Positions 12,533 through 45,705 of a DNA stretch of 64,000 nucleotides are shown piece after piece. Position 1 is the stretch's first letter. Every line of letters starts with the position of its first letter. The position numbers were made by a program, and so were the translations under genes. The DNA is from Octopus vulgaris (Eukaryota): assembly GCA_951406725.2 (NCBI GenBank), contig OX597822.1:99944001-100008000 (forward strand), written 5' to 3'. The notes below the pieces were generated by a model that searched no databases, was not told the DNA's origin, and saw only the letters and a program-made list of their open reading frames with translations.

Positions 12533-12965
12533 TCAACCCTTTAGCATTCAGATTACTGTGGTCTTGAATGAGATTTAAATGCATTACGGAGATGTACTTG
12601 CATAGCAAGTGACTTGATCTGAGATTGTGTGCTGGAGCAAAAACAATTGCAGCGTGGAAGGTGTTTATAAGCCATTTAAAAAACACACAAAAACCGTTAG
12701 ATTCACTTCAACATTTAAATTTAATTTGTCAAAATATTTTCGTCGCTTTGAGACCACGACCTGTTCACTGACAAAACTTTATGCTGCATTCACATTGCTT
12801 TGAATTAATCATGCATTATCTTGTAGCTTTGAGATTTCAATATGATTGCTTACTTTTAGAATGACATTGAAAGGTTGGTGTAAGAAGCCAAATCTGTCCA
12901 GTTTCAACATAAAACTGGTAAAATACTTAAGCCAGATATGGTCAGTTTAAATACTAAAGGGTTAA
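12533..12965 (+). mobile_element. MITE family 2 carrying an unrelated ~230-bp insert (~12559-12787)
   Basis: MITE ends are intact; the body resumes at cattcacattg. Confidence 0.75.
12725..12775 (-). ncRNA. Putative type I hammerhead ribozyme, G3:C8 variant
   Basis: Minus strand: UUUGUCA-GUGAACA-G-GUCGU..GCGAC-GAAA-AUA-UUU-UGACAAA. It has a 7-bp stem I, a 5-bp stem II and a palindromic stem III. Confidence 0.55.
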
Positions 12966-14945
12966 TCTACACACATGGAGACATATCTGGGATATTGCTA
13001 TTACTATAATCGCCATCACCATCATCATCAACACCACAATCATCATCATTGTCATTGTCACCATTCTCATTGAACATCTGACTTCCACAATTGCATGAGG
13101 TGAACAGTTTGACATGGTCTGATGAGCCAGAAGACAGCATCATGTGGTTCCTAAACTTTTCAGATTGATCCCCACCTTCTCATCTCTTGGCATCCAGGCC
13201 ACATTCCTAGTGCCCCCACCACCACCACCACCACCACCATCACCACTCACTACCACAAACAGACCACTTTCTGCAAGAAATTCAAAACAGTTGTATTTTG
13301 CAAATAAAACTAATTAACCCATTATTTTTGGGTTTTTTTGTTTTACATCTATTGCCCCCTTTTGGCTACCTCATTGTCACCCCCTTTTCTTCAATGACCC
13401 CTCTATCTTCCCACTGCCCTCTAGGGAACCACCAGTTTAACTGAATGCTTTTCCAAATGCCAACCAGTTTATGAACTGTACTGGGTGTTTTTTGTTTTGT
13501 TTTTTTTTTGGAGGGGGGGTTATGATGATGGTAGGGGAACACCAGCACTAGTCATGGTGGAAAAGAAAAAGCTAGTGATTTAGAATGGAATAAATTTGAG
13601 TTAAATCTTCAGTTCTAACAAGAAGTGAATCTATTTCTATAGCTCCTTAGCATGATATTCAACATCATTAATTATTAGTTGTTGGCTAATTTATTACAGC
13701 TGGTTTTTGTGCATTGTGTTTATCTCATTCTAACATCCATTTTTCCGTGCTTTCATTGATCGGGAGAAATTCACTGAGACAATTTCCTAAGCCGGATGTC
13801 CTTCCTGTCACCAACCCTCACCTGTTTCCAGGCAAAGCAATATTTCTCCATGGCCTGGTATGTTTTTCATGAAAGACTGGAAATGAATGTCACTCTTTTA
13901 CAACCACCAAACTATGTCAAGACCAAAACATACACATGGATACATACACATGGATGCATGCAAGTACACACATACATGTGTGCATGTAAGCGCACACATA
14001 CAAATGCACAAATATATACAAAATGGGTTCCTTTTAATTCTTCATCTATCAAATCCATTCATGAGGTTTTGGTTAGCCCAGGGCTATAGTATAAGACACT
14101 TGCCAAAGGTACCACAAAATGGAATTGAACCAGAAGTCACATGGTTGAGAAGCAAACTTTATAAACAGCCACAGACGTTGCTGTGTCTAAATGTACTGTT
14201 TGTTTCAAATTGTTCCCAGTTCATTCTGATAAAATCCATAGAGAAGGAAAAGAGAGAAGAAAAGAGGAGAGAGAGAGAAGTAGAGAGGAGAGAGAGAGAG
14301 AGTAAGAGAGCAGGAGGGAGTGATGGGCCACTTGTTCTTTATAATAGATGCAACTTCCTTCTCTTGTTCTCTCAGCTTCTGTAAAGTGGTTCAGCAATGA
14401 ATTTGACATTTCAAACTGAATATAACTTATTAGTTATGCGACACTAAATATATATATTCAATTACTATTCAGGTGTTGTTTCCTAATGTGTTGTTGTTAT
14501 CAAATGCTATGTTATCGTCCTCCTACTTAGCACTGGTATTCACTGATGGAGATGTTGGTTTGTTTTTGCTTTTATTTTGGTTTTCATTTCCCTTATTCGC
14601 TTTTCTTCATTTCTCTTCAAATACATACGCTATATACATTATATACATTCACGTACACACACAACCAGCTTCTGTTTGACATTATAAACATATTCTATTT
14701 ATACTCTAATCGTGAACATGGTGGGAGATTAACAAGCTTGATAGTGACATCAACATTATCACCATGTCTTTTTTTTTTTGTTTTGTCTTATTTTTTAATC
14801 TTACCCTCACTGCTGACTAACACTGCAAAAACACAAACAGCATTTACTTAAGATCTTTCTATGCGATACCTTTATGGATGCTAATTTTATCACCAGCTTC
14901 ATTCAGTATAAATGCAATATAGTCTGACTCCTTTACTTTGTTCCT

Positions 14946-15174
14946 TCAACCCTTTAGTGTTCACATTATTCTGCCAAAATTAATGCTTTTTTATCCACAT
15001 TGTTTTGAACTAATCATGCATTATCTTGTAGTTATGAAATTTTGATGAGGAAGCTGTTAATTTTTAAGATGATATTGTAGGGTTGGTGTGAGAGACCCGA
15101 TATGGCCAGTTTGAACATAAAACAAGCAGAATACTTTTGGCCGGATATGGCCGGTTTATATGCTAAAGGGTTAA
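14946..15174 (+). mobile_element. MITE family 2
   Basis: Closely similar to 9495-9723. Confidence 0.88.
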
Positions 15175-15223
15175 ATATTAGACACTAAAAAAATTAGTTT
15201 GGTGCATGTTAACCCTTTCATAA

Positions 15224-15548
15224 TCAATGGAAATTGCAGTTGTGATACCAGTGCCGGTGGCACGTAAGAGAACCATCCGAATGGGGCCGTTGCCAGTGCC
15301 GCCCCGACTGGCCTCCGTGCCGGTGGCACATAAAAATCACCAACCGATCGTGGCCGTTGCCAGCCTCATCTGGCATGTAAAAAGCACCCACTACACTCAC
15401 GGAGTGGTTGGCGTTAGAAAGGGCATCCAGCTGTAGAAACACTGCAAGATCAGACTGGGCCTGGTGCAGCCTCCTGGCTTCCCAGACCCCAGTTGAACCG
15501 TCCAACCCATGCCAGCATGGAAAGCAGACGTTAAACGATGATGATGAG
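15224..15548 (+). mobile_element. RTE-tail element, three array units
   Basis: Three ggcacgtaa-type cores and a (gat)n end. Confidence 0.85.
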
Positions 15549-15604
15549 GATTTCTGGCAAAATACACTACCTTAGTTTCATTTAATTTTGAAAATAATGA
15601 AGTG

Positions 15605-16020
15605 AGAGATCATTGCGAGAGCAACAAGTCGGCCTTCGTGCCGATGGCACGTTAAAAACACCGTGATCGTTACCTGCGTCGCCTTACTGGCACTTGTGCT
15701 GGTGGCACATGAAAAAAAACATTCAAGCGAGGTTGTTGCCAGTGCCACTGGACTGGCTCCTGTGCAGGTGGCACATAAAAAGCACCATTTGAGCGTAGTC
15801 ATTGCCAGTACTACCTATCTGGCCCTCGTGCCGGTGGCACGTAAAGGCACCCACTACACTCTCAGAGTGGTTAGTGTTAGGAAGGGCATCCAGCTGTAGA
15901 AACTCTGCCAGATCAGATTGGAGTCAGGTGCAGCCATCTGGTTCGCCAGATCTCAGTCAAATCATCCAGCCCATGCTAGCATGGAAGGCGGACTTTAAAC
16001 GATGATGATGATGATGATGA
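15605..16020 (+). mobile_element. RTE-tail element, four array units
   Basis: Same unit order as 7512-7964. Confidence 0.85.
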
Positions 16021-16762
16021 AGAAGAATTTGTTAAAGCATCGATACCATTATTAAGCTGCTGTCTGGAACTGAATTTAAAATATTTTGATGGAAGGTTTT
16101 AATTTAGGTTACTATGAAACAAGAAGTTGGTATTATAGAACTATGACCAATCTCAGGTAGGTCAGTACTAAATGGGTTAAATCATTGGTTGCTTCATTCA
16201 TGTTGCATTGCATTGTATTGCTTATTGAATTATGAAGTTCTGCAGGGAAAAAAAATTGACAAAAATTAGATCAATATGTCACTCTAAAGCAAAGCAGCTG
16301 AATGATGTGTGGTTAGTAAGATGAAATCGTTACACAAATTGTCTGTTGGCCAAATGTAGAAATGTCTGTGAGCCAGATCTAGAATTGTCTGAGAGCTACA
16401 TGTAGAATCAGGAAGCTACAGTATAAGAACCTACTTTAAAAGTTGTATTCTAAATAGGAAAACTTATTTTCTTATTACCCACTTTTTTGCCAAATTATTA
16501 CATGTTTTTAGTCATTTCAAGAACAAATCATCTGGTGTTGCACTAGGTTCCATCCTCCAAAAAAACTGTTCGTATTTGACTAAAATATTGGTTTCAAATT
16601 TTGGCACAAAGCCAGCAATTTCGGAGGAGGAGTAAGTCAATTACATCAACTTCTATGCTCTACTGGTACTTGAATTTGGACTCAGAACACAAGGATAGAC
16701 AATATATCACTAAGCATTTTCTTCGGCATGCTGACGATTCTGTCAGCTTGCTGCCTTAATAT

Positions 16763-16991
16763 TTAACCCTTTCATTACCAACCCAACTACTACTGGCTCT
16801 GGCTCTGTAGTACAAATATCTTGTTTTCATAAGTTCTGAATTAAAATCTTCCACCAAACCTTACTCACAATTTATGATCCTAACACTAACTGAATGATAA
16901 CCAAGTTATTTTACTAAATTCTTTGCTATATTTAAAGTAATTGAGAGAAACACAGAGCATCTCAACAGAAATACAGTAACGAAAGGGTTAA
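16763..16991 (+). mobile_element. MITE family 1
   Basis: TTAA at both ends; TIR ccctttc(a/g)ttac. Confidence 0.9.
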
Positions 16992-17149
16992 CCAGAGAAT
17001 TGAAATTACAAAGTTAGTCAGACTTCTGGGGGCAAAAATTCCACAATGATTCAAGGTAAGGTGTTTTTAAGCTGTATTCTAAATAAGCATCTAACATCAA
17101 CCAATATATAAATAAAAGTTTTATTAATCTATTAAATTCCTCCAAATTT

Positions 17150-17240
17150 TTTGCCAAACCGCTAAGTTACGGGGACGTAAACACACCAGCATCAGTTGTC
17201 AAACAATGTTGGGGGTACAAACACAGACACACAAACATAT

Positions 17241-17300
<60 letters not shown>

Positions 17301-17460
17301 CGATGGGCTTCTTTCAGTTTCTGTCTACCAAATCCACTCACAAGGCTTTGGTCAGCTCAAGGCTATAGTAGAAGACACTTGCCCAAAGTGCCACACAGTG
17401 GGAATGAACCCGGAACCATGTGGTTAATAAGCAAACTACTTACTACACAGCCACTCCTGC
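17150..17460 (-). mobile_element. SINE family B, 3'-truncated
   Basis: Matches 7010-7299. Confidence 0.85.
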
Positions 17461-17534
17461 CAAAACAATTCTCAATGATCCAAAACATATGGCCATTAAT
17501 AGGTATCACAAAATTTGTACAAGTGAACTCATTA

Positions 17535-17762
17535 TTAACTCTTTCGTTACTGTATTTATTTTGAGATGCTCTGTGTTTCTTTCGATTACTTTATATATAA
17601 CAAAGAATTTAGTAAAATAACTTAGTTATCATTAAGCTAGTGTTAGAAACATAAATTGTGACTAAGGTTTGGTGGAAGATTTCAATTCAAAACTTATGAA
17701 AACAAGACATTTGTACTCAGAGCCAGAGCCGGTTTCAGCCGGGTTGGTAATGAAGGGGTTAA
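17535..17762 (-). mobile_element. MITE family 1
   Basis: Reverse-orientation copy, TTAA-flanked. Confidence 0.9.
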
Positions 17763-18351
17763 TAAGTACCACAAAGTTTGTACAAGTCTACAAGTCAGCT
17801 GTTAATAGTTACCACAAAGTTTGCACAAGTTCACACTTTATACAACTTATAACGTATCAATTTATTATCATTTTGTAACTTCATAATCAAGCCTATTGGG
17901 AAGTTACACCTTCAGCCTACAAATCCTGGGATCAACAGGTCCAGTACAGTTATGATTATGAAAGACAAGAAAGAGAAAACATCCCAATAACATTTATTCA
18001 GAAAATATATTTGTGTTATTGATCTATATTAGATTTTTCTTCTTACTTTTTTTTTGGGGGGGTTCTTTTAAGTATTTATTAGGGTTTGTAATTGCATTTT
18101 AGCTATTTATTTAGCTCGGTTGAACTACAAGTGTGAAATAAAATCAATATTATATACTAATAACACTGTTACACAGAAGAAATGAAATCTATAGGCAACA
18201 CAAAAACACTCCAGGTGTTACAAGCTTCTCTACATTTTATTGCACAATGTGACAACATAATGGAGTGTAGTGTTTTTACAAAACAAGAGTACATGGGAAA
18301 AAATCTTCTACTGGCAAATGTTTATGTCATTATATATATATATATATATAG

Positions 18352-18387
<36 letters not shown>

Positions 18388-18615
18388 ATATATATGCTTG
18401 GAGATACATGGTGTTTTATAAATATGCCCAGTTAAAGTATCATAAAAATATGAAACTATTCGTAGCTCTTTTAGTTATGTTTTAAATTGATATTTATCTT
18501 TCAATATGGAGGTAGTACATTGATTGTTGATTCTACCTACATTGGACCTATACTTTACATACGCACACACACACACACACTCACTCACTCACTCACTCAC
18601 TCACTCACACACACA

Positions 18616-18808
18616 AGTAAACACATAAATGCAAAGCAAGGTGGAAAAATAATAGTACTCGATTACTTAAGGTAGAGTAATATGTTTTTATTAAAACTGC
18701 AAAATCTTCACAAAACTGTTACTCATTAAAACTGCCCAATGAATGGGAATGTGAAACTCTGAGTAACAGTCTTTTTTTAAAGATTTTGCAGCTTTAATAA
18801 AAGTATAT
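18616..18808. mobile_element. Foldback element, same family as 23113-23292
   Basis: ttttattaaaactgcaaaatct is inverted relative to agattttgcagctttaataaaa; contains gaaactctgagtaacag. Confidence 0.65.
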
Positions 18809-18814
18809 ATACAT

Positions 18815-18872
<58 letters not shown>

Positions 18873-18968
18873 TCCAATAATACTATATTTGTTCCACGTC
18901 CTCGCGTTGTTGTGTTTTCTCTTTGTGTTTTCATGTTTGGATTAACTATATATATATGATGATGATGA

Positions 18969-18999
<31 letters not shown>

Positions 19000-19221
19000 T
19001 GTTGTTATTATTATCATTATTATTATTATTATTATTATTCAACTCCACCCATGCCAGTAGCTTGTAAAAAGCACCCAGCACACTGCTAAGTAGTTGGCAT
19101 CAAGAAAAGCGAGATGACACTTCCTCAAGATCGGCAAACACATGCTGTAGCACGTCAGATGGAGTCTCAATACAGAAGGGAGATGAGACTTTCCCAAAAT
19201 TTCCAAATGAAACTAACGGCA

Positions 19222-19785
19222 GGTGCTGTTCTTGCATTAAGTTAAGATTGCCAGCACTACAAGCTCCTTCTCAACCTCTTATAGATCTTCTGGAAGACAT
19301 TTCCATCCAGTCAAAGGATTTTCTTAACAATATCAGACAATACAACTCTGCATTTCAAATGACATCGCTTGGTGCATCTAAGGATGGGGTAGAAAGGGCT
19401 CCTTAGCCGTAGTGAAGGCAATCTATCTAGGGAGATAACCTTACAATAAATCACTGGGTCCGTAGCTTAGAAATACTGGGTTGACGTCCAGCAGGAACAG
19501 CTTTGTTTCATGGAGGAGGAAAGATCTTCTTTAGTACTTGGTTGTACAATGCTTTCCAATGTGTGTAGTAGTGGCGCGCGCACACATTATTAGCCATTTG
19601 AAAAGACTATGAAAGTCTCGACCACGGTCGAACAATGATGATGATGATGCATCTAAGGAGATAGTTGCACATGGATTTAAGCCAATGTTCAAAGTTCAAG
19701 GGCAAGTCTATCACCTTATTGCTTCCCTGTTACCCACAAATGAACAACTACACTTCCTCCAAATTTACTTTGTGAGTAGGACAAC
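19222..19785 (+). pseudogene. Helitron Rep/Hel N-terminal fragment, split by an insertion
   Basis: CCSCIKLRLPALQAPSQPLIDLL..FLNNIRQYNSAFQMTSLGASK / EIVAHGFKPMFKVQGQVYHLIASLLP..FLQIYFV. NIRxYNSxFQMTS and FKxQGQVYH are characteristic Helitron motifs. Confidence 0.85.
19385..19647 (+). mobile_element. Unclassified short retroposon with (GAT)n tail and 12-bp TSD
   Basis: tgcatctaagga is duplicated at 19373-19384 and 19648-19659. Confidence 0.8.
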
Positions 19786-20649
19786 AAACCTGAAGGAGGT
19801 GTCAAAACTTCAGGCAATTGATCGTGTTAGATGCAGCGCTGACTGCCGCAAAGGAGATTATATCCCCTGACAGCTTTTTGGTGAGTTCAAAATTCACATA
19901 CCCCCTCCCCAATTTCTATGACAGGTTAGGGCCTAGAATACTCCAAAGAGAGGCATGACATGTCGCTTAGTTGAATTAGCTCAACATTTACTGCACAAAT
20001 GTTTTGTCATCAATGCTGCACTTTCCCCTATCACCTGTTTCAACATAACTGTAATATACACTTGCGTCAGAAATTAATTAGCACTTCTCAAATTTCTACA
20101 TTAAATAGGTTAAATTAATTAACCTATGAGCTGTTCAAAACGTCTTACGCGATGAGAAAACTTAGTATGGTGTGATTTCGGTCCTTGCGAGGCGCTACCT
20201 ATATCTATTAAACAAAGGAAGATTTGTCTGCATCCGCACTCCAAGTTGTTGTTGCACTGTCAACATCATAAGGCTGTAGACTCTCAAACTGCTCTGCAAA
20301 CAAAGTTACGTCATCGTTCTGCGCAACAGTGAACTCGCAACAAAGCAATAGTTCGAGATATGGCCACTAGGTGACAGCACATACCTTGAGTGAAGAGCAA
20401 ATCAAGGGTGCTAATTAATTTCTGACGGTAGTGTATATACAAACTATGCCATTTTAATCCCGAACAATGCCAGGTATCTCTGCTATACACGCACACATCC
20501 AGACCACCAGCCCTCTTTCACATGCACATACATACTCTCCTATACACACACGCACCTTCGTGTTGGGGGGGGTCATCTTTACTTTGTTATCTCCCCTACT
20601 TTCCCTCTCATGTGTTTACCTTCTGTGTGGGTCAGTCGCCATGATAACT

Positions 20650-20823
20650 CGTTAGCCACTACACATTTTTTTCTCTCCTTGTTTTTTCTGTGTCAGTTTC
20701 TGTAGAAGAGCATAGGCTCGAAACGTAAAAGACATTTTCTATTCCTGAGCGTTATACTAATACATCTGTTTGTTTTGTACACCACCTGTCTTCGTCTTTT
20801 GTTTTTTTCGTAAACTCTCCCTA
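20650..20823 (+). mobile_element. Probable PLE terminal-repeat remnant ending in (TA)n
   Basis: gagcataggctc-gaaacgta hammerhead-like half; the 3' part recurs at 60911-60978. Confidence 0.5.
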
Positions 20824-21665
20824 TATATATATATATACTTCTGTTCCAGTAATTTACTAATGAAACATATTTGCTATATCTACTAAATCTTCTGTTGTAA
20901 ATCAACAACTATTTTTCTTTTCTCCCAGTGCAAAACCTGGTACTACCAATGATTAGAAAAGCAGATAAGATCATAGTACATTTCTAAAAACCCAGACCGC
21001 AAGGAGTTTCTCTGTAGTTGCTGAATCTGCTAGAAATAGCAACCAACTGCTATCTTAAGTAAATAAGTCTACATTAACCAATGTAATCCCGGATACATCC
21101 CTACATAATAACAGCCAGTAGAAATGTTGGTTGTCAGGTTAGCCAGTTGGTCGGTTGAATTCTCCAGCCATACTTTACATTGCTTTATATTGTATAGAGA
21201 GAGGAGGAGAGAGGAGTGAGAGTAAAATAGAGATACAGAGAGAGCGAGTTAGAAAATTAAAATCAGAGGAACTCTGAAATTGACAAGCAGTGGTGAGGGA
21301 ATGATAAAGATGGTAAAAACTACATAGTTGATGGATGCTAAATACATAACATACATACACTCTCAGACATGCAATCTCCTATCCATGACAGACACATAAA
21401 GACATCACTGCTTGAGTAGAAAGATAGACTTGACAATCAGTTGGTAGGAGGAGGTAAAGAAGCATTAAGTTTATATAACCATGTGTTTGTAAGCATGCTA
21501 TATATCTTGTATTTTTTACTTGTTTTAAGCCTCAGGCTGTGGCCCTGCTGGGACACCACATTTACATATGGTTATGTATATAATAAATATATAATAGTGA
21601 TTGTTTACCCACAATAACAAACATATACTTCCAAAGTTATGCATCATATGACTGATAACACTCAA

Positions 21666-21700
<35 letters not shown>

Positions 21701-21701
<1 letters not shown>

Positions 21702-22083
21702 TCTTTTACTTGTTTCAGTCATTTGACTGCGGCCATGCTGGAGCACCGCCTTTGATCGAGGAAATCGACCCTAGGACTTATTCTTTGTAAGCCTAGTACT
21801 TATTCTATCGGTCTCTTACGGGGACGTAAATACACCAGCATTGGTTGTCAAGCGGTGTTGGGGGGGGACAAACACAGACGCACAAACACACATACATATA
21901 TATACATATATATATATACAGTGGGCTTCTTTCAGTTTCCGTCTACCAAATCCACTCACAAGGCTTTGGTCGGCCCGAGGTTATAGTAGAAGACACTTGC
22001 CCAAGGTGCCACACAGTGGGACTGAACCCGGAACCATGGGGTTGGTAAGCAAGCTACTTACCACACAGCCACTCCTGCACCTA
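21701..22083 (-). mobile_element. SINE family B
   Basis: Matches 6884-7299 with a small internal deletion. Confidence 0.9.
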
Positions 22084-23112
22084 TATACATATATATATGT
22101 GGATCAAAACAGTTTTTTTCAAATTCATTGGTCATCATTGGAGTCTATCAACAAATTTGAATCAAACTGTTTTGATCCATACATGTAACTCCCAAAAATT
22201 TTGAGTGCCCTTCTTTCGTTTGTCCTATCACTCATATATATATGCATATGGGAAAAGCTACTTTTTCCGTTGGGGCTTATATGCCCCATTATTAGTCTAT
22301 TTTCTTTAGTCATTACATAATGATTGCTTATAAAATACTATTATTATGATTTACAGAATAGTAAAAATTAACGCCACCTAACAAAAACCATTGTAGTAAA
22401 AGCATATATATATATATATACACACACATATATATATATACACATATATATACATGCACACACACACACACATATAAATAAAGATGGGATGTTCACAGAT
22501 AAAATATCTTTGATCAGGGCTGACCTGGGTTTATCAACAAATCCCTTTCTGCAACATTTTTCCCCAGCAACAATCCAAAACAAACTGATCGCATCAAGCC
22601 ATCCAGTCAAGAAATATCCTTAAAAGAAGATAAATACAATTACCAAAAAAAAAAATAATAATAATAATAATAAATGAAACTACCTAAATGCTATAGGGTA
22701 CTCTCTTTTTCCTTGAATAAACAAATGTAAAAAAAAAAGAGAGAGAGAGAAAAACATTATTTCTATAGCAAATTGATTGGTCAATTCTTTTTCCATTATG
22801 TTGAAAGTGGATAGCTATTTATTGTTTTATTGTCATGAAGATCACATCAGCAAACAAACAAAGCATACACTAACGCTTGCTGTGCTGTCTGAAGACAGCT
22901 ATCTTGTTTGGCCATTGCAACAGGCATTTTTTTTTTCAAGGTTACACACCAGGTTTCTAATTGCTGTAATGAACAAGTTTTGTCTCCGAAGTTTATTTCT
23001 TTATTTCATTTATTATTTGGTAATTGACATGGTAAATGGAACAGCAGGGTGTCTGTATTCTCTATTTACATTTCAAAGCTCTCTCTCTCTTACTATATAT
23101 ATATAAATATAC

Positions 23113-23287
23113 AGGAGTAAACACATAAATGTGAAACAAGGTGGAAAAAAGAGTACTCAAATACCAGTGGTAGAGTAATATGCTTTATTTAAAGCAGCAG
23201 AAAATTCAACAAAACCTGTTACTCTGAGTTGCCCCGGGAAACTCAGAGTAACAGGTTTTGTTGAATTTTCTGTTGCTTTAAATAAAG

Positions 23288-23292
<5 letters not shown>
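23113..23292. mobile_element. Foldback element embedded in (TA)n
   Basis: Near-perfect ~50-bp arms (atgctttatttaaagc...ctctgagtt / aactcagag...gctttaaataaagtat) around gccccggga. Confidence 0.85.
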
Positions 23293-23363
<71 letters not shown>

Positions 23364-23419
23364 TGTGTGTGTGTGTGTGTATGTATGTATATATATATAT
23401 ATTTTCTTTCACATTTTCA

Positions 23420-23802
23420 TACTTTTACTTGTTTCAGTCATTTGCCTGCAGCCATACTGGAGCACCACCTTAAAGGATGTTTAGTCAAAGACATTGATCC
23501 CAGGACTTATTCTTTGCAAGCCTAGTACGCATTCTATCGGTCACTTTTGCCAAACCATTAAGTTACGAGGACATAAACACACCAGCATCGGTGGTCAAGA
23601 CATAGCGGTGGGAGACAAACACAGACACATACACATTAATATATATTTATGCACATATATGACAGGCTTCTTTCAGTTTCTGTCAACCAAATCCACTCAC
23701 AAGGCTTTTGTTGGCCTTGCTATAGTAAAAGACACATGCCCTAGGTGCCACGCAGTGTGACTGAACCTGGAACCATCTGGTTAGGACGCAAGCTTTTTAC
23801 CA
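23420..23802 (-). mobile_element. SINE family B, older copy
   Basis: Diverged match to 6884-7299. Confidence 0.8.
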
Positions 23803-25509: not shown

Positions 25510-25866
25510 AACCATCCGAACGTGGCCGTGGCCAGCGCCGCCCCGACAGGTCTCCGTGCCGGTGGCACGTAAAAAGCACCATTCGATCGTGGCCATTGCC
25601 AGCCTCGCCTGGCCCCTGTGCCAGTGGCACGTAAAAAGCACCATCCGATCGTAGCCGTTTGCCAGCCTCATCTGGCACCTTGACAGGTGGCACATAAAAA
25701 GCACCCACTACACTCTCGGAGTGGTTGGCATTAGGAAAGGCATCCAGCCATAGAAACACTGCCAGATCAGACTGGAGCCTGATGCAGCCTTCTGGCTTCC
25801 CAGACTCCAGTTGAACCGTCCAACCCATGCTAGCATGGAAAACGGACGTTAAACGACGATGATGAT
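25510..25866 (+). mobile_element. RTE-tail element, three array units
   Basis: Three cores and a (gat)n end. Confidence 0.85.
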
Positions 25867-34439: not shown

Positions 34440-34471
<32 letters not shown>

Positions 34472-34932
34472 CCCTTACTATTATAGGCACAAGGCCTGAA
34501 ATTTTGGTTGGGAGGGTAAGTCAATGACATTGATCCATAATACTCAATGAGTTCTTATTTCATCAGCCCCCAAAAAGATACAAGGCAAAGTTGACCTTGG
34601 TGGAAATTGAACAAAAAACAAAGAGCCAAGGTCAATTTTTGACTTACATCCTTTCAGGGTCAACAAAAATAAGGGCCAGCAGAATACTGGAATTAATATA
34701 ATTGGCTTACCCCTTCCTCGTACAATTGCTGGCCTTGTACATAAATTTGAAGTCATTATTATTATTGTTGTTGTTTAAGGCGGCAAGCTGGCAGAATCAT
34801 TAGCATACTAGGCAAAATGCTTAGTGGTATTTTGTCTGCTGCTACGCTCTGAAATAAGTACCAGTTATGCACTGGGTCAATATAATCAACTAGGCCCCTT
34901 CATCCAAAATTTTCAAGGTCTTGTGCCTAGAG
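34235..34932. mobile_element. Cluster of four decayed SINE A pieces (two minus, two plus)
   Basis: Repeated aggcacaag / gcagaatttgaactc / aataagtaccag motifs in both orientations. Confidence 0.7.
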
Positions 34933-34979
34933 CAGACATGATAATTATTATTGCTGTTGTTGTTGGCATTATTATTGTA

Positions 34980-35018
<39 letters not shown>

Positions 35019-35529
35019 CCAAATTGTTTTTATTCCTTGACTTAGTTTCTCTTTCTGCCTAATTTCACTTCCTAGTGTAATTAAGCACAATAAACATTGT
35101 TATTACTGACATATGACTAGACTAGATATATTTCCTAGATAATGACATGAATAAACAAACCAACACAGGAACCTTGATAAAATTGCTTGACCTACTAGAA
35201 TCACACTGAATTACGTAATCTTTAAAATATTGGATTATTATAATGCCCACTTCAGTTTACAGTATACCTAGTAAAAACCAGTAAAGACACGACTATCTCT
35301 GACTACCTACTATGTACTCTGGTACTTCACATACTTCTCTTTACTTATAGTGACTAGGTTATTCCATTTGTCACATTTAAATAATTGGATGGTCAAAGCT
35401 AGAATGTCTTTTATTGCAGGTCAGCTAATCTCTAGATTCAAAAAAGTAGATACAGTAATTCCTTACCATATCGCAGTTCACCAAACATGCACTCAGTACA
35501 TCATGGATTTTTCTGGCTAATATTACTCT

Positions 35530-35574
35530 TTTATATCTTTCAGTCATTTGACTGATGGGGGAACACAAACACAT

Positions 35575-35627
<53 letters not shown>

Positions 35628-35783
35628 CATGGTAGGTTTCTGTCTACCAAATCCACTCGCAAAGCTTTGGTCAGCCCAATGCTATAATAAAAGACACTTT
35701 CCCAAGGTGCCACACAGTGTGACTTAACCCATAGTCATGTGGTTGGGAAGCAAGCTTCTAACCACACAGCCACTCCTGCACCT
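35530..35783 (-). mobile_element. SINE family B, internally deleted
   Basis: cagtcatttgact joined to aacacaaac..ctaccaaatccactc..cacagccactcctgc. Confidence 0.75.
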
Positions 35784-35804
35784 ATGTGTATGTGTGTGTT
35801 TGTG

Positions 35805-35849
35805 TGTATATATATTATATATATAACATATGTATATATATATAATATA

Positions 35850-35907
<58 letters not shown>

Positions 35908-36112
35908 GTATATAGATATATAATATATGTGTATATATAGATGTATAATATATATGCATATACACATGTATAATATATATATATACAAATGTATAATATA
36001 TATATATATATATACAAATGTATAATATATATATATACAAATGTATAATATATATATACAGATGTATAATATATATATATATAATATAATATATATATCA
36101 CATTTATATATC
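35805..36112. repeat. Complex (TA)n with recurring atgtataatatatat units
   Basis: Read directly from the sequence. Confidence 0.9.
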
Positions 36113-36368
36113 ACATTTCAATGCAGACATTTTTATTCTGATGTTCAATCTTATATCTCACATTCTGTATTTGACTTATACTTGATTTTACATGATTGAT
36201 ATATATACTAATTCATATTTATAATGTATAATTTATAAATTTTAATTCTTAATATTACAAAGTATAATCTTTATTTTAAATTTTTGAATTCTTAATTTTT
36301 AATGCTTAGTTGCATTGCTTATTTTTTAAAGGGATGTGAAATTAATTGCATATATGTATTTATATATG

Positions 36369-36411
<43 letters not shown>

Positions 36412-36504
36412 TCGTGTATATGTATATATACTGTAATTTTCCAATACTGAAACACATGTAGTTCCTTCATATTTAATAAATTTAAGTATTAACTAAAGTA
36501 GGAG

Positions 36505-36557
<53 letters not shown>

Positions 36558-36785
36558 CATACATATAATATATATATATATATAATATAAAGTTAATCCA
36601 AACAAGAAAGCATAAAAAAACACAACTCGAGGACGTGGAACAAATATAGTATTATTGGATGCTCATGTATATATATATATATATATATATGCGGTTGTGA
36701 AGCAAGCTTCTTAACACACAGTTACTCCTGTATGTATATAATATAATATATATATAATATATGTGTGTATACGTGTGTGTGGGCA

Positions 36786-36972
36786 TATAGATAGATAGAT
36801 AGATAGATAGAGAGATAGATAGATAGATAGACAGACAGATAGATAGACAGACAGATAGATAGACAGACAGATAGATAGACAGATATATAGATAGACAGAT
36901 ACATAGATAGACAGATATATAGATAGACAGATATAAAGATAGACAGATATAAAGATAGACAGATAGATAGAT
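36786..36972. repeat. (GATA/GACA)n microsatellite
   Basis: Read directly from the sequence. Confidence 0.95.
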
Positions 36973-37329
36973 GTGTGCTTTGATTTGGCATTAAAAATTA
37001 GCACTAATTAAGCGTATAGCTGGGAGAAAAAGGTCTTTGGAGTAAGATGATAGATTGACAAGGAACACAGGAAGATGAAAAGAGAGGTAGATTAAGACTT
37101 TTACAATAAGATAGTTAGGGGAGTAGGGGTAGTGTTTATGACCTTTGAAAGCTCTCCCTTCACTTCTGCAATTTAGGCCCAGCTTGAACATCTGCAGTCA
37201 ATGACCGCAAGGCCTTTGGCTGGCCCAAGGCTATAGCAGAAAAGACTCACCCAAGGTACTCTATAGTGAGATTGAACCAGGGACCACGTGGTTGGGAAGG
37301 AAACTTCTTACCACACAGTCACGTTATCT

Positions 37330-37720
37330 CTCTTTACTCTTTTACTTGTTTCAGTCATTTGACTGCGGCCATGCTGGAGCACCGCCTTTAGTCGAGCAAA
37401 TCGACCCCGGGACTTATTCTTTGTAAGCCCAGTACTTATTCTATCGGTCTCTTTTGCCGAACCGCTAAGTGACGGGGACGTAAACACACCAGCATCGGTT
37501 GTCAAGCAATGCTAGAGGGACAAACACACACACATATATATATATATATATGTATATACATATATACGACAGGCTTCTTTCAGTTTCCGTCTACCAAATC
37601 CACTCACAAGGCTTTGGTCGGCCCGGGGCTATAGCAGAAGACACTTGCCCAAGATGCCACGCAGTGGGACTGAACCCGGAACCATGTGGTTGGTAAACAA
37701 GCTACTTACCACACAACCAC
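37330..37720 (-). mobile_element. SINE family B, young copy
   Basis: CpG-retaining match to the family. Confidence 0.92.
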
Positions 37721-37914
37721 TTATATGCGCCTTATATGTATTTTTTTTACAGAAAAAGGAGGAAACTAACATTAGATAAGTAGAGCAGAAACAATACACT
37801 TTCATTACTGACATTCCTAAACAGAATTATAAGAGATAATTGCGTTAATTATTCTGATGAAATTTTTTTTACATATACACAATTTCATGCCAATGTAAAT
37901 GTATGTTTATGAGC

Positions 37915-38074
37915 GAGTGTATTCGTGTGGTAAGTAGCTTGCTAAACAACCACATGGTTCCGGGTTCAGTCCCACTGCGTGGCACCTTGGGCAAGTGTCT
38001 TCTGCTATAGCCCCGGGCCGACCAATGCCTTGTGAGTGGATTTGGTAGACGGAAACTGAAAGAAGCCTGTCGGA

Positions 38075-38127
<53 letters not shown>

Positions 38128-38346
38128 ATGTTTGTGTGTCTGTGTTTGTCCCCCTAGCATTGCTTGACAACCGATGCTGGTGTGTTTACGTCCCCGTTAC
38201 TTAGCGGTTCGGCAAAAGAGAACCGATAGAATAAGTACTGGGCTTACAAAAGAATAAGTCCCGGGGTCGAGTTGCTCGATTAAAGGCGGTGCTCCAGCAT
38301 GGCCGCAGTCAAATGACTGAAACAAGTAAAAGAGAGTAAAGAGAGT
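37915..38346 (+). mobile_element. SINE family B, young copy
   Basis: Head-to-head with 37330-37720. Confidence 0.92.
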
Positions 38347-38519
38347 TAATGGTTTTCTGTAAAACTAAATGGATACATCAATATACATATATAAACTATG
38401 GATGTGCTTTATATATGCATGTTTGTGAATATGCACAATGTAGCTACAAGTATTTATGTGAACAGTTTGACTAGAAAATAAATTCTTTTATGTTTTCACC
38501 TTTAATATTACTGAAATAT

Positions 38520-38748
38520 TTATTTCTTTATTGCCCACAAGGGGCTAAACATAGAAGGGACAGACAAAGGACAGACAAAGGGGTTAAGTTGATTACATTG
38601 ACCCCCAGTGTGTAACTGGTACTTATTTAATCGACCCCGAAAGGATGAAAGGCAAAGTTGACCTTGGCGGAATTTGAACTCAGAACATAACAGCAGACAA
38701 AATACTGCTAAGCATTTCGTCCAGCATGCAAATGATTCTGCCAGCTTG
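38520..38748 (-). mobile_element. SINE family A, full length
   Basis: Reverse complement of 52138-52370. Confidence 0.88.
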
Positions 38749-38795
38749 CTCTGAAATATTGCATGTACACTCATGTATAGACATATTTGTGTGTA

Positions 38796-38858
<63 letters not shown>

Positions 38859-39082
38859 TCAAAAATTGTGAAGCATGACTGTCACCACTACTACATGAAC
38901 CTGAAGATTGCAGATTTTAATGCATGAAAGTATTAGTTCAATCAGAATGAACATTTAACATTCTATTATTTTATTTTATTATATTATATTATATCATTAA
39001 AAGATTGTAAATAAAACGTGAAAATCAGACAAGGTTGGAATTCCTTTTATTAATATATTCTTCTATACACAATCACACACAC

Positions 39083-39127
<45 letters not shown>

Positions 39128-39821
39128 TAATAAAATATTAGGGAATAAATCCAAACTTACAGGGAAAAATCAGATTTAGGATTAAATCCAATTTTATAGT
39201 ATAAATATATTATATTATATTATATTAAATTAGAGATAAAACCACTATTAGGCAAATCAAACAATGCAAAACATAAGCCAATACAACTTTCTGCTAGCCA
39301 CTTGATAATATTTTCATATTTGATTCCCAATTCGAATAATTTTTATGAATTGAATAAGAATTATACACATTGGGGAAAAAAAAAAGAGAAAAGAACTGAA
39401 AATGAAAGTGGCTACAAGTCTGTGACAAAAGCTTAGACAGCAATATAAGGCCAAAATTCAAAAACGAAATGAAATGGGTGCTGTATGGAAGGGCACCTTC
39501 CTCACAATTAAAAAAAGTATTGCCAGTAACTTATTTAGGGCAGATGGAGAGGAAATGTGTCAGAGACCAGGTCACAAATGTTCCATTGAGAATTTTTAAT
39601 ACAAGATATAAAAGAAAACTAAATAAAACATTTTGTATGGGTTCTCAAATGATTAAAATGGGCAACATAATTGTTTTATATATATATATATACACACACA
39701 CATACATTCATACACATATACACACACACACACACACACATGATTATGCTCTCCATTTTAACTATATATAATATATATATATATTATATATACATATATA
39801 TTATATATATATATTATATAT

Positions 39822-40420
39822 GTTTCTTTATTGGCCACACAGGGCTGAACACAGAGGGGACAAAATACAAAGTAGAGCCTTTCTTTTTGGGAAGAGTAAA
39901 AAGGGGAGGGGTAGAATTTCGATCAAAAGGGATCATGGAGAGAAAAAAAAAAGAAGGCTGATCAATAGGGATCGTGTATCACAGAAATGTCATAATGTAA
40001 TAAGAGGAAACAGATTAGGTTTATCGGTGGAAAGAAAAGCCTGCAGAAAAGACCACGGTAACCTCGGGCAATAATGTCATGCAATAAAAACACGTTACAG
40101 TAAGTGACTCTCTTTTTCTTTTTGGTTAATAGGATTATGCTCAAGCTGGCTATGTAATTCACATGTGCCATCCTTGCTACATTCACCCATCTTTTTTTGA
40201 AACAGTCACTAGATAAAACTTCCCTCTCTACTCTCACCTTCCTCTTCAAGTGATATTTGAAGAATTGATGAGAGATTCACCAGAGAGGAAATTGTTTGTC
40301 TCTAGACCTTTCATATGCGTCCACCACACACATTCTTTCACCATAACCGCAAGTACAATGAAAATGGCCCTTCTTTCCCATTTCAAGGAAGGAGGTGCGA
40401 CAATATTCATGATAGACTCC
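39822..40420 (-). mobile_element. 3' end of a LINE, probably L1/Tx1-like
   Basis: ORF remnants ..LAVMVKECVWWT.. and ..KRKVRVEREVLSSDCFKKRWVNVAR.., followed by a 3' UTR ending gtcccctctgtgttcagccctgtgtggccaataaagaaa. Confidence 0.6.
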
Positions 40421-40421
40421 C

Positions 40422-41013
40422 CTAGCAAATTATCTTATTTGTTAAACTGTATTTTATGAGTAATACATAGTCTTTGGACTAAATTTTTACACATTAGGCC
40501 ACTGGAAGTGAAAATTTCTACTAATTTCCATTTCCCTTTGACCTGATTAAGTATTATAAGTTTTTGGATAATTTTCGAATTTCAAAAGTTGGCATTTTTT
40601 TATTGCCGATGAGGAGCTGCGCCTGCGCAGTAGATTTGAAAGAATTAGGATGTAAAAACACGAGACATATAATTGATCGCCTCGTGTTTATATATTTAAT
40701 CTGTGTTCCTGTTGATAATGATTTCACCTAGCAAATTATCTTATTTGCTAAACTAAAATCAGAAACCAATTGGTCCAGGAAACTAGATGGTAACAGCTTT
40801 TAGTTTTCATTTCGTTCCTTTCGGAATTTTATCCCAAATTTTGTGGTTTTAGAACCTAGCTGTTCTTTCTAGCGTGATGAATCCCATAAGTGGATTCCTC
40901 TTATGTGTATAAACGTACACTGTATTTTATGAGTAATACATAGTCTTTGGACTAAATTTTTACATGCTAGGCTACTGGAAGTGAAAATTTCTACTAATTT
41001 CCATTTCCCTTTG
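40422..41013 (+). mobile_element. Probable PLE terminal-repeat region with a partial direct repeat
   Basis: 40446-40541 is repeated at 40919-41013 and 40422-40447 at 40728-40754; the region contains a hammerhead fold. Confidence 0.6.
40706..40781 (+). ncRNA. Putative type I hammerhead ribozyme, U3:A8 variant
   Basis: UUCCUG-UUGAUAA-UGAUUU..UAGCAAAU/AUUUGCUA..AAAUCA-GAAA-CCAAUUG-GUC-CAGGAA; predicted cut after 40775. Confidence 0.72.
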
Positions 41014-41448
41014 ATATGATTAAATGTATATATATATTTCATTTGAATGAAACAGTTCTAGTCCTGTAGAAGCTCTTTCTATAAAATAAAATAAAATATA
41101 TATATATATATATATGCATATATACATGTGTGTATACATACATACATACGTATACATGTGTGTGTAGATGGATATTCTTTTAACAATTTCAGACAGATTG
41201 TGCCTATACCAGATCACTGCCTAGAAAAGCTTTAGTCAGTCCAATTTTTCAACCCTAGTATTTATTTATTTCAGTCTGCTATTTATTTTATCAATTTTGA
41301 CTGAAAAGTGAAGTTACTGAAGTTACCATTCCTCACATAACAGAATACTATTTGACAAACTGTAAAACATAAACACAAGCAAAAACAAACATATAATGGA
41401 CTTCTGACTCCAGAATTAGGCACTAAAGCAACATGTTGTGTATGAAGA

Positions 41449-41676
41449 TTAACCCTTTCGTTACCAACCCGGCTGAAAGTGGCTCTGGCTCTGAATACAA
41501 ATGCCTTGTTTTCATAAGTTTTGAATTAAAATCTTCCACCAAATTTTAGTCACAATTTATGTTCCTAACACTAGCTGAATGATAACTAAGTTATTTTACT
41601 AAATTCTTTGTTATATTTAAAGCAATTGAAAGAAACACAGAGCACCTCAAAATGAATACAGTAACGAAAGGGTTAA
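41449..41676 (+). mobile_element. MITE family 1
   Basis: Perfect 12-bp TIR and TTAA at both ends. Confidence 0.92.
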
Positions 41677-42441
41677 ACCCAAAACTACATGGTTGTGAAG
41701 CAAACTTCTTAACTGCATGGCTATCAAGAATCTAGTGAGAAATACTTTTTCAGTAAGGTGTCCCCCAATTATGGGAGACAACTCAACACATGCTTCCATT
41801 TAATTACACATCCTCGGAGATACATAGTCTTCAATGTGCTTGTTAGAAAGTAGAGACAAGAGAATTAGAAAGTGGATGTATATGAATGAATATATGTTAA
41901 AAATTAGGACATTTAAAAAACAAAAAAAATCATTGAGGTTAAAGAGTAAGGGATGTCATCCTTGTTAAAAACAATAGTTGAGTTAATGTTAGCATACTTA
42001 ATGCAGTTCGTTTCAAAAAAATCTAATTAGAGATACTTACTGTAATAAAGCTTATCATTTTTAATTTACAGAGACAGTACAAACAAATAAGCTCACATAC
42101 ATAGACAGTGTATGTGTATATGCATATGTATTCCCATTGTTTGAGAGCAGACAGATTGTTTGAAACAATTATTTTCAGGTGGATAACTGTGCACCAGATT
42201 TAAGATGAGGTGACTGCTGAACAGATTTTGTTGACAGATAATCTGGAATTTTGCTTATTTGAACAGCTAGCTACATGGAATGTAAGATAGACTATACAAG
42301 AATATACTGAATCATGAAGTAGCGATTGTGACACACAAGCTCATATTATAAATTGCATCTTTAGACTGCAAAATTTTAAGGTTACAATAACCAAGATATT
42401 TCTCATTGAAAAAATCTGCTCCAAGTAGTAAAATGAAAGTA

Positions 42442-42993
42442 TTAACCTATTAGCATTCGGATTACTCTCTCAAGTGTGGTACTTAATTATTCATATTATT
42501 TTGAATTAATCTTGTATTATATGTAGCTCTGAGATTTCAATGGTGTGACTATAAATTTTTTGAAATGACATTCTAGGGTAGGTGTGAGAGGCCTGATGTG
42601 GATGGTTTGAACATAAAACAAATAGAATATTTGGGTTGCATATAGCCTGTTTAAATGTTTGTTGTTTGTTCCTTCTCAAGCCATGCCTGGCTCATAAGGG
42701 CCGGTTTCCCGGTTTCTTGGTGTATAGGTTCCCTACTTGGACAGGACACCGGTCCGTCGCAGGTGAGCTGCAAGATGCAGGAGGAAAGAGTGAGAGAAAG
42801 TTGTGGCGAAAGAGTCAGCAGAAGTCTCACCGTTACCTTCTGCCGGAGCCGCGTGGAGCTTAGGTGTTTTCACTCATAAACACACACATCGCCCGGTCTG
42901 AGATTCGAACCCGCGATCCCTCGACCACGAGTCCGCTGCTCTAACCACTACGCCATGTGCCTCCACACCCTGTTTAAATGCTAAAGGGCTGAA
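42442..42993 (+). mobile_element. MITE family 2 interrupted by a SINE
   Basis: Body to 42657, with the right end resuming at 42969. Confidence 0.75.
42658..42968 (-). mobile_element. SINE family C head with tail type 3
   Basis: 12-bp TSD cctgtttaaatg (42646-42657 and 42969-42980), ggttcgaatc B box and (aac)n-like tail. Confidence 0.88.
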
Positions 42994-43321
42994 TAGAATC
43001 TAAAACAAAAAGAAAGAAACTGAAACAAATGCCTTCATTATAACAGTTTTTCAATTGAAATAGTAATATGTAGAAGAGTGATAAAGCTGCTCCCCAGATA
43101 CGATGATATTCTGTCTAAAATAACATTTACGGATGATCTAGTGCCTCTTCCGGACAGTTGAGTGAACTGAGAAAAGTCCAAGTACCTAATGACATGTTTG
43201 TAGAGGATTTGACTCTAGGAAAAAGGATAGTCTATATTGTTATCCATTTGTCCACTTATGTTTACAAGTTTGTTTACATACTGAACATTTTCAAACCCTT
43301 CTGCTACCATATTTATATAAT

Positions 43322-43580
43322 AATGAAATTATTGTATACAGTGCTCAGGTGCACCACAACTTGTCAGAAAGTGCATATAAAGTACATGCAGTAATGTAGA
43401 AATGTCTGGAAAGCGAACACGTGCTTGTGTGTGTATGGAGGGAGAAAATCAGGTGTAGTGTTGGCGAATCTCAGGAAGCATGGAAGTTTTGAAGGATGCA
43501 GTGCTCCGACAACTAACAACTGATGCCGGCAGTTTGTTCCATGCTTCAGCAACTCTCAGCGTGAAAAAATGTTTCCTGAA
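43322..43580 (-). mobile_element. 3' end of a CR1/L2-group LINE
   Basis: FRKHFFTLRVAEAWNKLPASVVSCRSTASFK plus 3' UTR. A related end lies at 45803-45935 with an (ATT)n tail. Confidence 0.8.
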
Positions 43581-44814
43581 TATTTCTACTCAAATACACT
43601 GCATTTATTTCAATTAATTTTTAAAAACTTAATGAAGAATTTAGTAAAATAACTGTCATCATTAGACTGGTTTTTGGCACATAAATTAACATAAAATTTT
43701 GTCAACATATTTTTGTTGAAATACACATAAATTAACATAAAATTTTATCAACATATTTCTGTTGAAATACACTGCATCTGCTTCAATAGATTTTGAAAAT
43801 AATGAAGAATTTAGTAAAAATAATCTTGTTATTATTAAGTGATTTGGAACAATAATTAACATGCTTTGAAGGTAGGTTTTAATTTAAATTGCTTTTTACC
43901 AGGAAGCTTGTATTACAGAAAGAAGTGTGATCTTGAACATATTGGTATAAAATGGGTTAAACAACAAAAACACAAGAGATGACATCATTAAGGAATCAAA
44001 GATTAAAGTAGAATTAATTAAAAAACACATTTATATATTGGAATATGCTAGGGAGAGAGAGAGAGACGATAACAGAGAAGAATGTAAGAATAAATTGAGT
44101 GCCAGTTTAGGATAACTAAAAAAAAAAAAAGAGAAGTACAGATCCAACCTTGGATGGAATTTGGTAAATAATTTGGCATCCCCCTTTCAGTTTTATATCC
44201 AATGTTTCTCCTTTTAATTTAGAGTTCTGAGATAGTGTTGTACCATGCAAACTAAAAGAACTTTCCCCTCTATTTATCTTTTCTCTGTTGACATAAAATC
44301 TGTTACGTTTTGATGTATTGGGAGAGAGAGAGAGACAGACAGAGACAGAGAAAGGATGAGCGCTACTAAAATGACAGAAATTAGTCTGGAAATTTTTGAT
44401 AAAGTGATCTTCCATTTACTTCCTTAGATGGATTAGGTCACTTATCTCAGTTAGACCAGTGGTAGCCAAACGGACATATGATACTTAATAACAACGCAAA
44501 ACAGGATATTAAGGTGAGCAGCTGAAGTGGTTTCACATGCTTTAACTCCAATAACAACAGTTAATTCAGAGGATAGGTTGTAATTAATAGAGAAATACAT
44601 TTGTTTATTCATTCTTTATTGACTTTTCCATGACATTATGGGACAGAGGAATCCATTATTGAGGCAGCGTTTTATTGCAGAATGCCCTTCATGTCATAAA
44701 TCCTTGCCTGTTTTTCAAGTAAGGTGTGCATTTATGTCGGGGCAACAATGCTCAAACAACAATTTCAGGACAGGGGGAGTCACAACACCACAAGTTATAG
44801 CAAACACACACACA

Positions 44815-45215
44815 TTCTTTTATTCTTTTAGTTGTTTTAGTCATTTGACTGCAGCCCATGCAGGAGCACTGCCTTGAAGGATTTTAATTGAACAAATCGA
44901 TCCCAGGATTTACCTTTTAAGCCCAGTATTTATTCTATCAGTCTCTTTTGCTGAACCGCTAAGTTATAAGGATGTAAACACACCAATACCAGTTGTCAAG
45001 CTGTAATGGGGGGGGAGGCACAAAGACACACACAGGTACATTCATATATATACATATGTACAACGAGCTTCTTTCAGTTTCCGTCTACCAAATCCACTCA
45101 CAAGGCTTTGGTCAACTCAAGGCTATAGTAAACGATACTTGCTCATGGTGTCACGCAGTGGGACTGAGCCTGGAACCATGTGGTTGGGAAACATTCTTCT
45201 TATCATAAAGCCACA
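44815..45215 (-). mobile_element. SINE family B, older copy
   Basis: Diverged match to the family. Confidence 0.82.
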
Positions 45216-45455
45216 CTAATGCCATATTTATACATACATACATACACACATACATATATATAAGAGGATATATCAGCCTCTTAAAGGAATGATTACATCC
45301 AAGAAAACACTGGTTCTATACCTTATATTTTTGGGAAATAAAATTTCCCTAAATCAGTAGATATATATTAAGTATATAATCCGTTTTTAATTACAGGACT
45401 AAAATGGAGAGTTAGTGGTTAATAAATATTCATTATTAATAATTTGATAATCATT

Positions 45456-45555
45456 TCTTCCTACAGCTGTATCCATTTATACTCATTGAATAAATTACAA
45501 ATTTATGCATTAAATTTGCATTTATACGTTATGAGCAAAATATCATCAGGAAAAA
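45456..45555 (-). ncRNA. Mirror hammerhead copy with a GAAA>GAUA core lesion
   Basis: Minus strand UUUUUC-CUGAUGA...GAUA-CAGCU-GUA-GGAAGA, with palindromic ACAGCUGU in stem III. Confidence 0.5.
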
Positions 45556-45605
45556 GTCGGCTGGAATGAACAGATAGATCAACATGTAATTTCTTAATAT
45601 CTAAC

Positions 45606-45705
45606 TTTTCCCTGATGATATTTTCCTCATAAATTATAAATGCAAATTTAATTTATAAATTTGTAATTTATTCAATGAGTATAAATGGAAACATCTGTAG
45701 GAAGA
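45606..45705 (+). ncRNA. Putative type I hammerhead ribozyme, canonical core, long stem II
   Basis: UUUUCC-CUGAUGA-[UAUUU..CUCAU...AUGAG..AAAUG]-GAAA-CAUCU-GUA-GGAAGA; predicted cut after 45699. Confidence 0.7.

Follow-up and report, generated by a model that had tools for sequence, protein, structure and literature searches.

Minimal type I hammerhead motifs in multicopy repeats of Octopus vulgaris, including a Penelope-like family with a G3:C8 core

Hammerhead motifs in the window

We analyzed a 64,000-nt stretch of the Octopus vulgaris genome (assembly GCA_951406725.2, contig OX597822.1, positions 99,944,001 to 100,008,000 of the forward strand), referred to here as the window. It contains hammerhead ribozyme motifs in unrelated repeats, of which the first three are named families A, B and C. 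An earlier note on this DNA had described three type I layouts, and both inspection and a relaxed descriptor found them where the note had placed them (Table 1). The features are real and belong to a known kind; family A has a natural variant of the core with good support, and its catalysis is a prediction. All three window copies have a three-helix junction closed by stem I, with U4 G5 A6, A9, G12 A13 A14 and A15.1-U16.1 in place; conservation within the families agrees with this assignment, and positions 3 and 8 are able to pair in families A, B and C. The core pairs were read correctly in the note as C:G, U:A and G:C, but the U:A of the window copy proved to be a minority state in family B. 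The NUH triplets are UUU in A, GUC in B and GUA in C. In the A motif, stem I has 7 bp (12775-12769 with 12731-12725), the core runs from G3 at 12768 to A9 at 12762, and stem II has 5 bp; GAAA and the palindrome AATATT complete it. The B motif has a 6-bp stem I, a 6-bp stem II with an upper hairpin, and GAAA. The C motif has a 6-bp stem I, a 5-bp stem II, GAAA and a stem III palindrome with one mismatch.

The genome searched comprised 2.8 Gb in 227 contigs, with the window on contig C9. Figures given for the first 100 listed matches are hand counts, the listing being in genome order. The relaxed descriptor accepted any Watson-Crick or U·G pair at 3:8, a single additional base next to stem II and a stem III close to a palindrome. 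The note had proposed such a search as a check, and at the loosest setting it recovered the three sites of the window, 12768 (-), 40712 (+) and 45612 (+), together with a fourth at 38901 (+), assigned to family D. Two stricter settings gave three sites. Sixty dinucleotide shuffles of the window in 2-kb blocks produced one match in total at the loosest setting (0.017 per window) and none at the stricter ones, a chance estimate that is generous because the descriptor was designed after the sites were known. The window is AT-rich and dense in microsatellites and short repeats. Each of the four hammerhead segments has at least 40 scored matches in the genome. An Rfam scan of the window returned 96 matches at E<=1 with no hammerhead among them, and a PDB sequence search returned none. 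The literal CUGANGA is present in C and D, and absent from A and from 73 of the first 100 listed B copies. As the note had foreseen, a search for CUGANGA only would miss family A and most of B.

Table 1. Hammerhead-related features of the window (positions are those of the 64,000-nt stretch)
Feature	Positions	Strand	Remarks
Family A insert, 207-bp solo pseudo-LTR fragment (putative transcript start to 'tail' end)	12583..12789	-	ends common to other copies; in L467 the same sequence stands on either side of the open reading frame
Family A type I hammerhead motif	12725..12775	-	G3 (12768):C8 (12763); additional G at 12761, ahead of stem II; U17 (12732); cleavage expected between 12732 and 12731
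First codons of Penelope-like open reading frame (ATG at 12675), cut off at tail end	12583..12675	-	open frame in the window; continues into long open reading frame in L467
Family B insert, about 1.25 turns of 473-bp unit, retrozyme-like	40443..41037	+	40443-40550 repeats at 40916-41023, 94%
Family B type I hammerhead motif	40706..40781	+	U3 (40712)-A8 (40717); palindrome ACCAATTGGT; C17 (40775)
Family C insert, ends approximate	45555..45806	+	plus-strand copy
Family C type I hammerhead motif	45606..45705	+	C3 (45612):G8 (45617); long stem II; A17 (45699)
Inverted family C copy, head to head with the plus copy, ends approximate	45224..45557	-	GAUA replaces GAAA; core damaged
Family D, fourth hammerhead motif, missed in the earlier note	38896..38940	+	canonical C3 (38901):G8; extra base on both sides of stem II; A17

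Family A belongs to a Penelope-like element

A pattern that left positions 3 and 8 free gave 7,476 genomic matches to family A. C8 was found in 7,050 of them, and G3:C8 in 95 of the first 100 listed. Among the 426 matches without C8, the first 100 listed were G:U (43), G:G (35), G:A (16), A:U (3), U:G (2) and A:A (1), with no C:G. U17 is present in all 78 aligned A copies, and the subfamily variation of these copies lies in loop II, upstream of stem I, or preserves a U·G pair. The note had allowed that the consensus might be plain CUGANGA and the window copies decayed; for family A the family counts refute this. G3:G8 is commoner than G3:A8 among the first 100 listed copies without C8 (35 vs. 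16), and it occurs in several subfamily backgrounds. The idea that the G3:G8 copies form one old intermediate subfamily was not supported by eye (no tree was made), as they are of several subfamily types.

Upstream, longer A copies continue across some 1 kb of untranslated DNA and reach an open reading frame (ORF) with reverse transcriptase (RT) motifs, a CX3CxxC linker and, at the C terminus, a GIY-YIG domain, the last scoring above the Pfam cut-off. The ORF contains DKS, SMDVVSLY, QTKG and YVDD, which we take to represent the usual RT motifs. It aligns with another Penelope-like RT at 28% identity (E 5e-10); Pfam RVT_1 gave no match on the A ORF itself and a weak match on one of seven homologs. 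Open frames of this kind in the genome reach 1,025 aa at 94-95% identity. At 24 of the 30 best ORF loci a descriptor-positive G3:C8 motif lies 1.0-1.1 kb downstream of the ORF on the same strand; a looser match added two (26 of 30), and four loci have none there. Locus L467 has the order motif, ORF (with frame breaks), motif, the two motifs being 4,261 nt apart, and its tail runs on into the ORF. This stretch matches residues 3-243 of a sister protein at 38% identity (E 2e-43). On the motif-ORF linkage and the motif-ORF-motif layout of L467, family A is by sequence the pseudo-long terminal repeat (pseudo-LTR) of an endonuclease-bearing (EN+) Penelope-like element encoding RT and GIY-YIG. The ORF-start homology of the window fragment is drawn from L467, since the 31-aa window peptide by itself gave no BLASTP alignment with the sister N-terminus. 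A CX3CxxC linker is of the Neptune/Nematis type according to Craig et al., a likeness known here from the linker. Copies of A often lie beside an inverted, 5'-truncated neighbor, have an optional tail and occupy AT-rich targets, as Penelope-like elements do. The retroelement context proposed in the note is supported in these respects: all three families are multicopy repeats with Penelope-like insertion marks, and A has an autonomous Penelope-like parent.

The 3:8 pair in sister families

In a sister family at 53-54% protein identity, C3:G8 is the pair of the homologous motif, which lies upstream of the start of that family's own ORF. A pattern excluding G3 found 6,457 relatives (296 with the reversed control), mostly C3:G8 and many with C at position 9. 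When identical flanks were required on both sides, 1,243 matches were obtained; the first 100 listed were G:C (49), C:G (31), U:G (7), G:U (4) and other (9, including no G:G and one C:C). In an alignment of 23 hand-picked, related copies the 3:8 pair is formed in 22 (16 C-G and 6 G-C). Over the paired positions, 88% of cells are paired as compared to 23-46% with the partners slid. Both partners have changed in 6 of the 13 pairs, with such two-sided changes in stems I, II and III as well. The other core positions are invariant across these families in eight of nine cases, position 9 being variable in one sister only. In the A sister whose open frame is 1,312 aa long (L243-L246, L251 and others), core position 9 is mostly C, and other copies of this family have A9.

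The earlier note had claimed covariation from the three repeats of the window, but non-homologous repeats cannot themselves show it. The real evidence comes from the homologous sister families of A and from variation within B, both invisible to the author of the note. On these alignments we consider the 3:8 covariation between A and its sisters to be real. G3:C8 is probably the derived state by parsimony, because C3:G8 is found in several sisters. C17 is present in 14 of the 16 C3 relatives in the alignment. In PMC3884650 a G3-C8 hammerhead variant is said to have had higher activity when position 17 was G than when it was C, the data themselves not being presented. The U17 of family A may therefore spare it a G3-C17 mispair, which would extend stem I into the core.

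Insertion ends and folding of family A

The 3' ends of A copies fall at two points separated by about 55 nt and often lie in TA repeats. Of 53 copies whose start is intact, 24 stop at one particular A just before the window insert begins, 13 stop one base later and 16 extend further. An untemplated G, where the template has C, is found in 19 of the 24 copies that stop at the putative start (binomial P 4e-9). We read this G as the copy of a cap at the start of the transcript. A splice junction would be the other option, because the upstream sequence resembles a 3' splice site. By either reading the junction sequences indicate that the template was uncut RNA. Most A copies would be short cDNAs whose template was uncut and probably capped RNA, with priming at two internal positions, about 150 and 207 nt from the start of the transcript, and insertion into AT-rich DNA; cleavage would then come late or play a minor part.

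The computed intermolecular stem III, palindromic in all three families, has an energy of -13.0 kcal/mol for B, -1.1 for window C and -0.2 for A. Because this pairing is strong for B and marginal for A, the predicted cleavage activity of A is uncertain.

Family B

The non-coding B unit of 473-477 nt carries a type I hammerhead, occurs in tandem and as 1.25-unit copies, and is predicted to fold strongly (z = -4.67). These properties suggest that B is likely a non-coding retrozyme-like unit. A genome-wide census of the 3:8 pair, another check named in the note, found A staying G:C and C staying C:G, but the commonest state in B is a U3·G8 wobble, not U3-A8. The relaxed pattern gave 163 B matches, and the first 100 listed were U·G (41), U-A (31), C-G (27) and U·U (1). 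C3 without G8 was found in none of the 163, whereas independence of the two positions would give about 8 C:A per 100; the association has a naive Fisher P of 6e-6 in the first 100 listed. B would shift among C-G, U·G and U-A and avoid C·A. The note's proposal that several families use non-canonical hammerheads holds for A, whose core is fixed in a non-canonical state, and in part for B, which is mixed; C is plainly canonical.

In 67 aligned B copies, part of which were picked with U4, G5, A6 and A9 fixed, positions 3, 7 and 8 vary in 22%, 52% and 31%, respectively, as compared to a median of 4.5%, and the changes at 3 and 8 are almost only transitions. The first B tree was confounded by unrelated flanks and was rejected. 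A second tree was made from 65 of the 67 copies (U:U and G:G rows left out) with columns 3, 7 and 8 masked, and has five starred branches. It requires at least 7 changes at position 3 and at least 14 at position 8, with the states scattered over a tree that is weakly resolved.

No coding parent of B with an RT and GIY-YIG ORF was found. The one candidate parent, a Penelope-like ORF beside B in L122/L248, was rejected: B is absent from all 30 of its top loci, and this ORF family has a hammerhead of its own. At L205, L248, L374 and L261 different Penelope-like families directly adjoin at TA repeats, an arrangement that can fake a link between hammerhead and ORF.

Families C, D and other hammerheads

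Tight matches to C are C:G in 11 of 14, and the remainder are mismatches. The palindrome is intact in most aligned C copies, the window copy having one change. No parent ORF was found for C, whose loci gave only stray endonuclease fragments in unfitting positions; C is likely a Penelope-type pseudo-LTR. Family D is young and multicopy and often occurs as head-to-head pairs. The 5' ends of C and D (L062-L090, L474-L485) cluster at AGT shortly upstream of the hammerhead, as in family A. This AGT resembles an initiator.

Another young Penelope-like family, unrelated to these, has many open frames of 811 aa; its hammerhead, with a stem II of 2 bp, lies about 150 nt downstream of the ORF stop (L344-L373; also L378). 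Of 30 loci, 19 have U3·G8 and 6 have U3-A8, while 5 gave no match to the motif.

Discussion

The hammerheads of the window resemble those of known Penelope-like elements. Metazoan minimal type I hammerheads are located in pseudo-LTRs, have a palindromic or missing stem III, an extra nucleotide between 9 and 10.1 and commonly U17, and occur as opposite-strand pairs (Cervera and De la Peña 2014, PMC4209133); the window motifs share these features. In that work U3-A8 is present in Schistosoma, one Saccoglossus row of Fig. S3 is U3·G8, and many rows have U17. The Fig. S3 rows examined have C3 or U3 and no G3:C8, the state of family A, and the extra nucleotide is G in family A as opposed to H in the published consensus. 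The word 'Octopus' does not occur in the supplement file of PMC4209133 that was searched, and our literature search found no paper on octopus hammerheads. Natural covariation from C3-G8 to U3-A8 was described by Perreault et al. (2011, PMC3088659); 3:8 covariation is common to both studies, and section 8 of that paper names U3-A8 only. We found no natural G3:C8 in the literature covered, whose scope excludes Lünse 2017, the likeliest place, and the supplements of Perreault 2011 and the bioRxiv papers. The small variants of Lünse, Weinberg and Breaker (2017), as cited in PMC6765202, have a short palindromic stem III, are associated with Penelope-like elements and are cleaved as dimers. The families described here share these traits by motif and element context, dimer cleavage being a prediction in our case.

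A close counterpart of family A is Anolis Poseidon (PAc), whose hammerhead cuts only with its protein and is partly rescued by an engineered C3G/G8C change (Frangieh et al. 2024, PMC11167929). In both elements the hammerhead is placed where the pseudo-LTR and the ORF meet, and the targets are AT-rich. Both would also share priming at two internal sites, which sets the tail, and a main template of uncut RNA, these two traits being probable for family A. G3:C8 was engineered in PAc and is the natural state in family A, which also differs in its CX3CxxC linker and in an ORF start about 90 nt after the core. Family B is similar to non-LTR retrozymes in its non-coding unit, type I hammerhead, more-than-unit and tandem copies and strongly folding RNA (Cervera and De la Peña 2020, PMC7229834; Li et al., bioRxiv 10.64898/2026.07.22.740005). 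Its 473-nt unit (about 170-400 in retrozymes), Penelope-type palindromic stem III and mixed 3:8 pair, known here from genomic sequence, set it apart from them.

Our preferred interpretation, to which we give a probability of about 0.7, is that the three motifs have the sequence of minimal type I hammerheads and lie in multicopy elements, and that A, located in the pseudo-LTR of an RT and GIY-YIG Penelope-like element and carrying G3:C8 in place of the C3:G8 of its sisters, is likely a slow ribozyme needing a dimer or the element's protein. Slow cleavage dependent on a dimer or a protein has been published for such motifs (PMC4209133; PMC6765202). Selection would keep 3:8 paired since this tertiary pair positions nucleotide 8. 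Several observations speak against this interpretation. The 5' junctions of A show no excess at the scissile bond (about 50, or about 37 without stem-I fold-backs, vs. about 38 at a control site; 30 of 61 and 30 of 103 matches inspected). Stem III of A is very weak, a longer off-pathway palindrome is stronger (-3.8 kcal/mol), and the predicted A monomer pairs G3 with U17. Because the 23 aligned copies are related, the record holds one flip, not many, and one evolutionary change accounts for the difference between A and its sister. Core sequences seem relaxed in this genome, with a young sister family carrying C9 and U·G common, and G:G copies make up roughly 2% of family A (from 35 of the first 100 listed among the 426). 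For B, the association in an independent-pairs test is not significant with only three supported pairs, and one C:A copy exists outside the pattern (L018).

Much of this would also suit a motif that descends from a hammerhead and no longer cuts, its shape being kept as a protein-binding or promoter-proximal element and G3:C8 being two substitutions that happen to pair. The A inserts keep the whole motif with no pile-up at the cut site, its weak stem III competes with the off-pathway palindrome, and other families in this genome tolerate C9 and U·G. The lizard Penelope-like protein inserts in vitro without need of cleavage (PMC11167929), and the A motif is situated 15-60 nt behind the putative start, where promoter elements could constrain it. 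We nevertheless consider loss of cleavage unlikely. Among families whose proteins are only 53-54% identical, the core beyond 3:8 has changed at position 9 alone and in one sister, paired changes occur in three stems too, and B avoids C·A; absence of ends at the cut site has also been reported for a hammerhead that does cut in vitro (PMC11167929).

If plain CUGANGA families had decayed at random, or if AT-rich DNA had given such folds by chance, this would fit the window copy of B, which combines its minority 3:8 state with a minority 6-bp stem I (13 of 64) and a minority U-A closing pair of stem II (10 of 67); it would also fit B inserts whose tandem units differ at position 3 or 8 (L375, L193). 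Such an origin is highly improbable given that A has G3:C8 throughout the family as its usual state, also in the copies whose open frames are long, that independent decay predicts C:A pairs which the B matches lack, that positions 3 and 8 of B vary far above the median and nearly always by transitions, and that the shuffles hardly ever produced a match.

A bolder view, which we hold tentatively and regard as possible rather than probable, is that the natural G3:C8 hammerhead of A works, has yet to be described in print and is fixed in a lineage of Penelope-like elements that was active recently, with U17 avoiding the G3-C17 trap. Both routes of 3:8 change would then be on record in this genome, from C-G to G-C between sisters and among C-G, U·G and U-A inside families. 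Thousands of inserts would mark where uncut Penelope RNA begins with its cap. In the structure of the active hammerhead the C3:G8 tertiary pair has a key part, and its flip is known as an engineered rescue; here G3:C8 is fixed in a family of about 7,000 copies with long open frames, and the canonical sisters are natural controls. The system offers a test of what purpose the Penelope hammerhead serves and what level of activity it requires. The untemplated G at the 5' end common to these copies would let the transcript start be read from the genome, and it suggests that insertion in vivo proceeds from uncut RNA. Motifs of this kind are undercounted by consensus searches and by the current models of Rfam.

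Other repeats of the window

Arrays of a 62-66-bp unit of an abundant short interspersed repeat are found at 2176-2412, 7570-7788, 15686-15845, 25556-25705 and 56612-56826.

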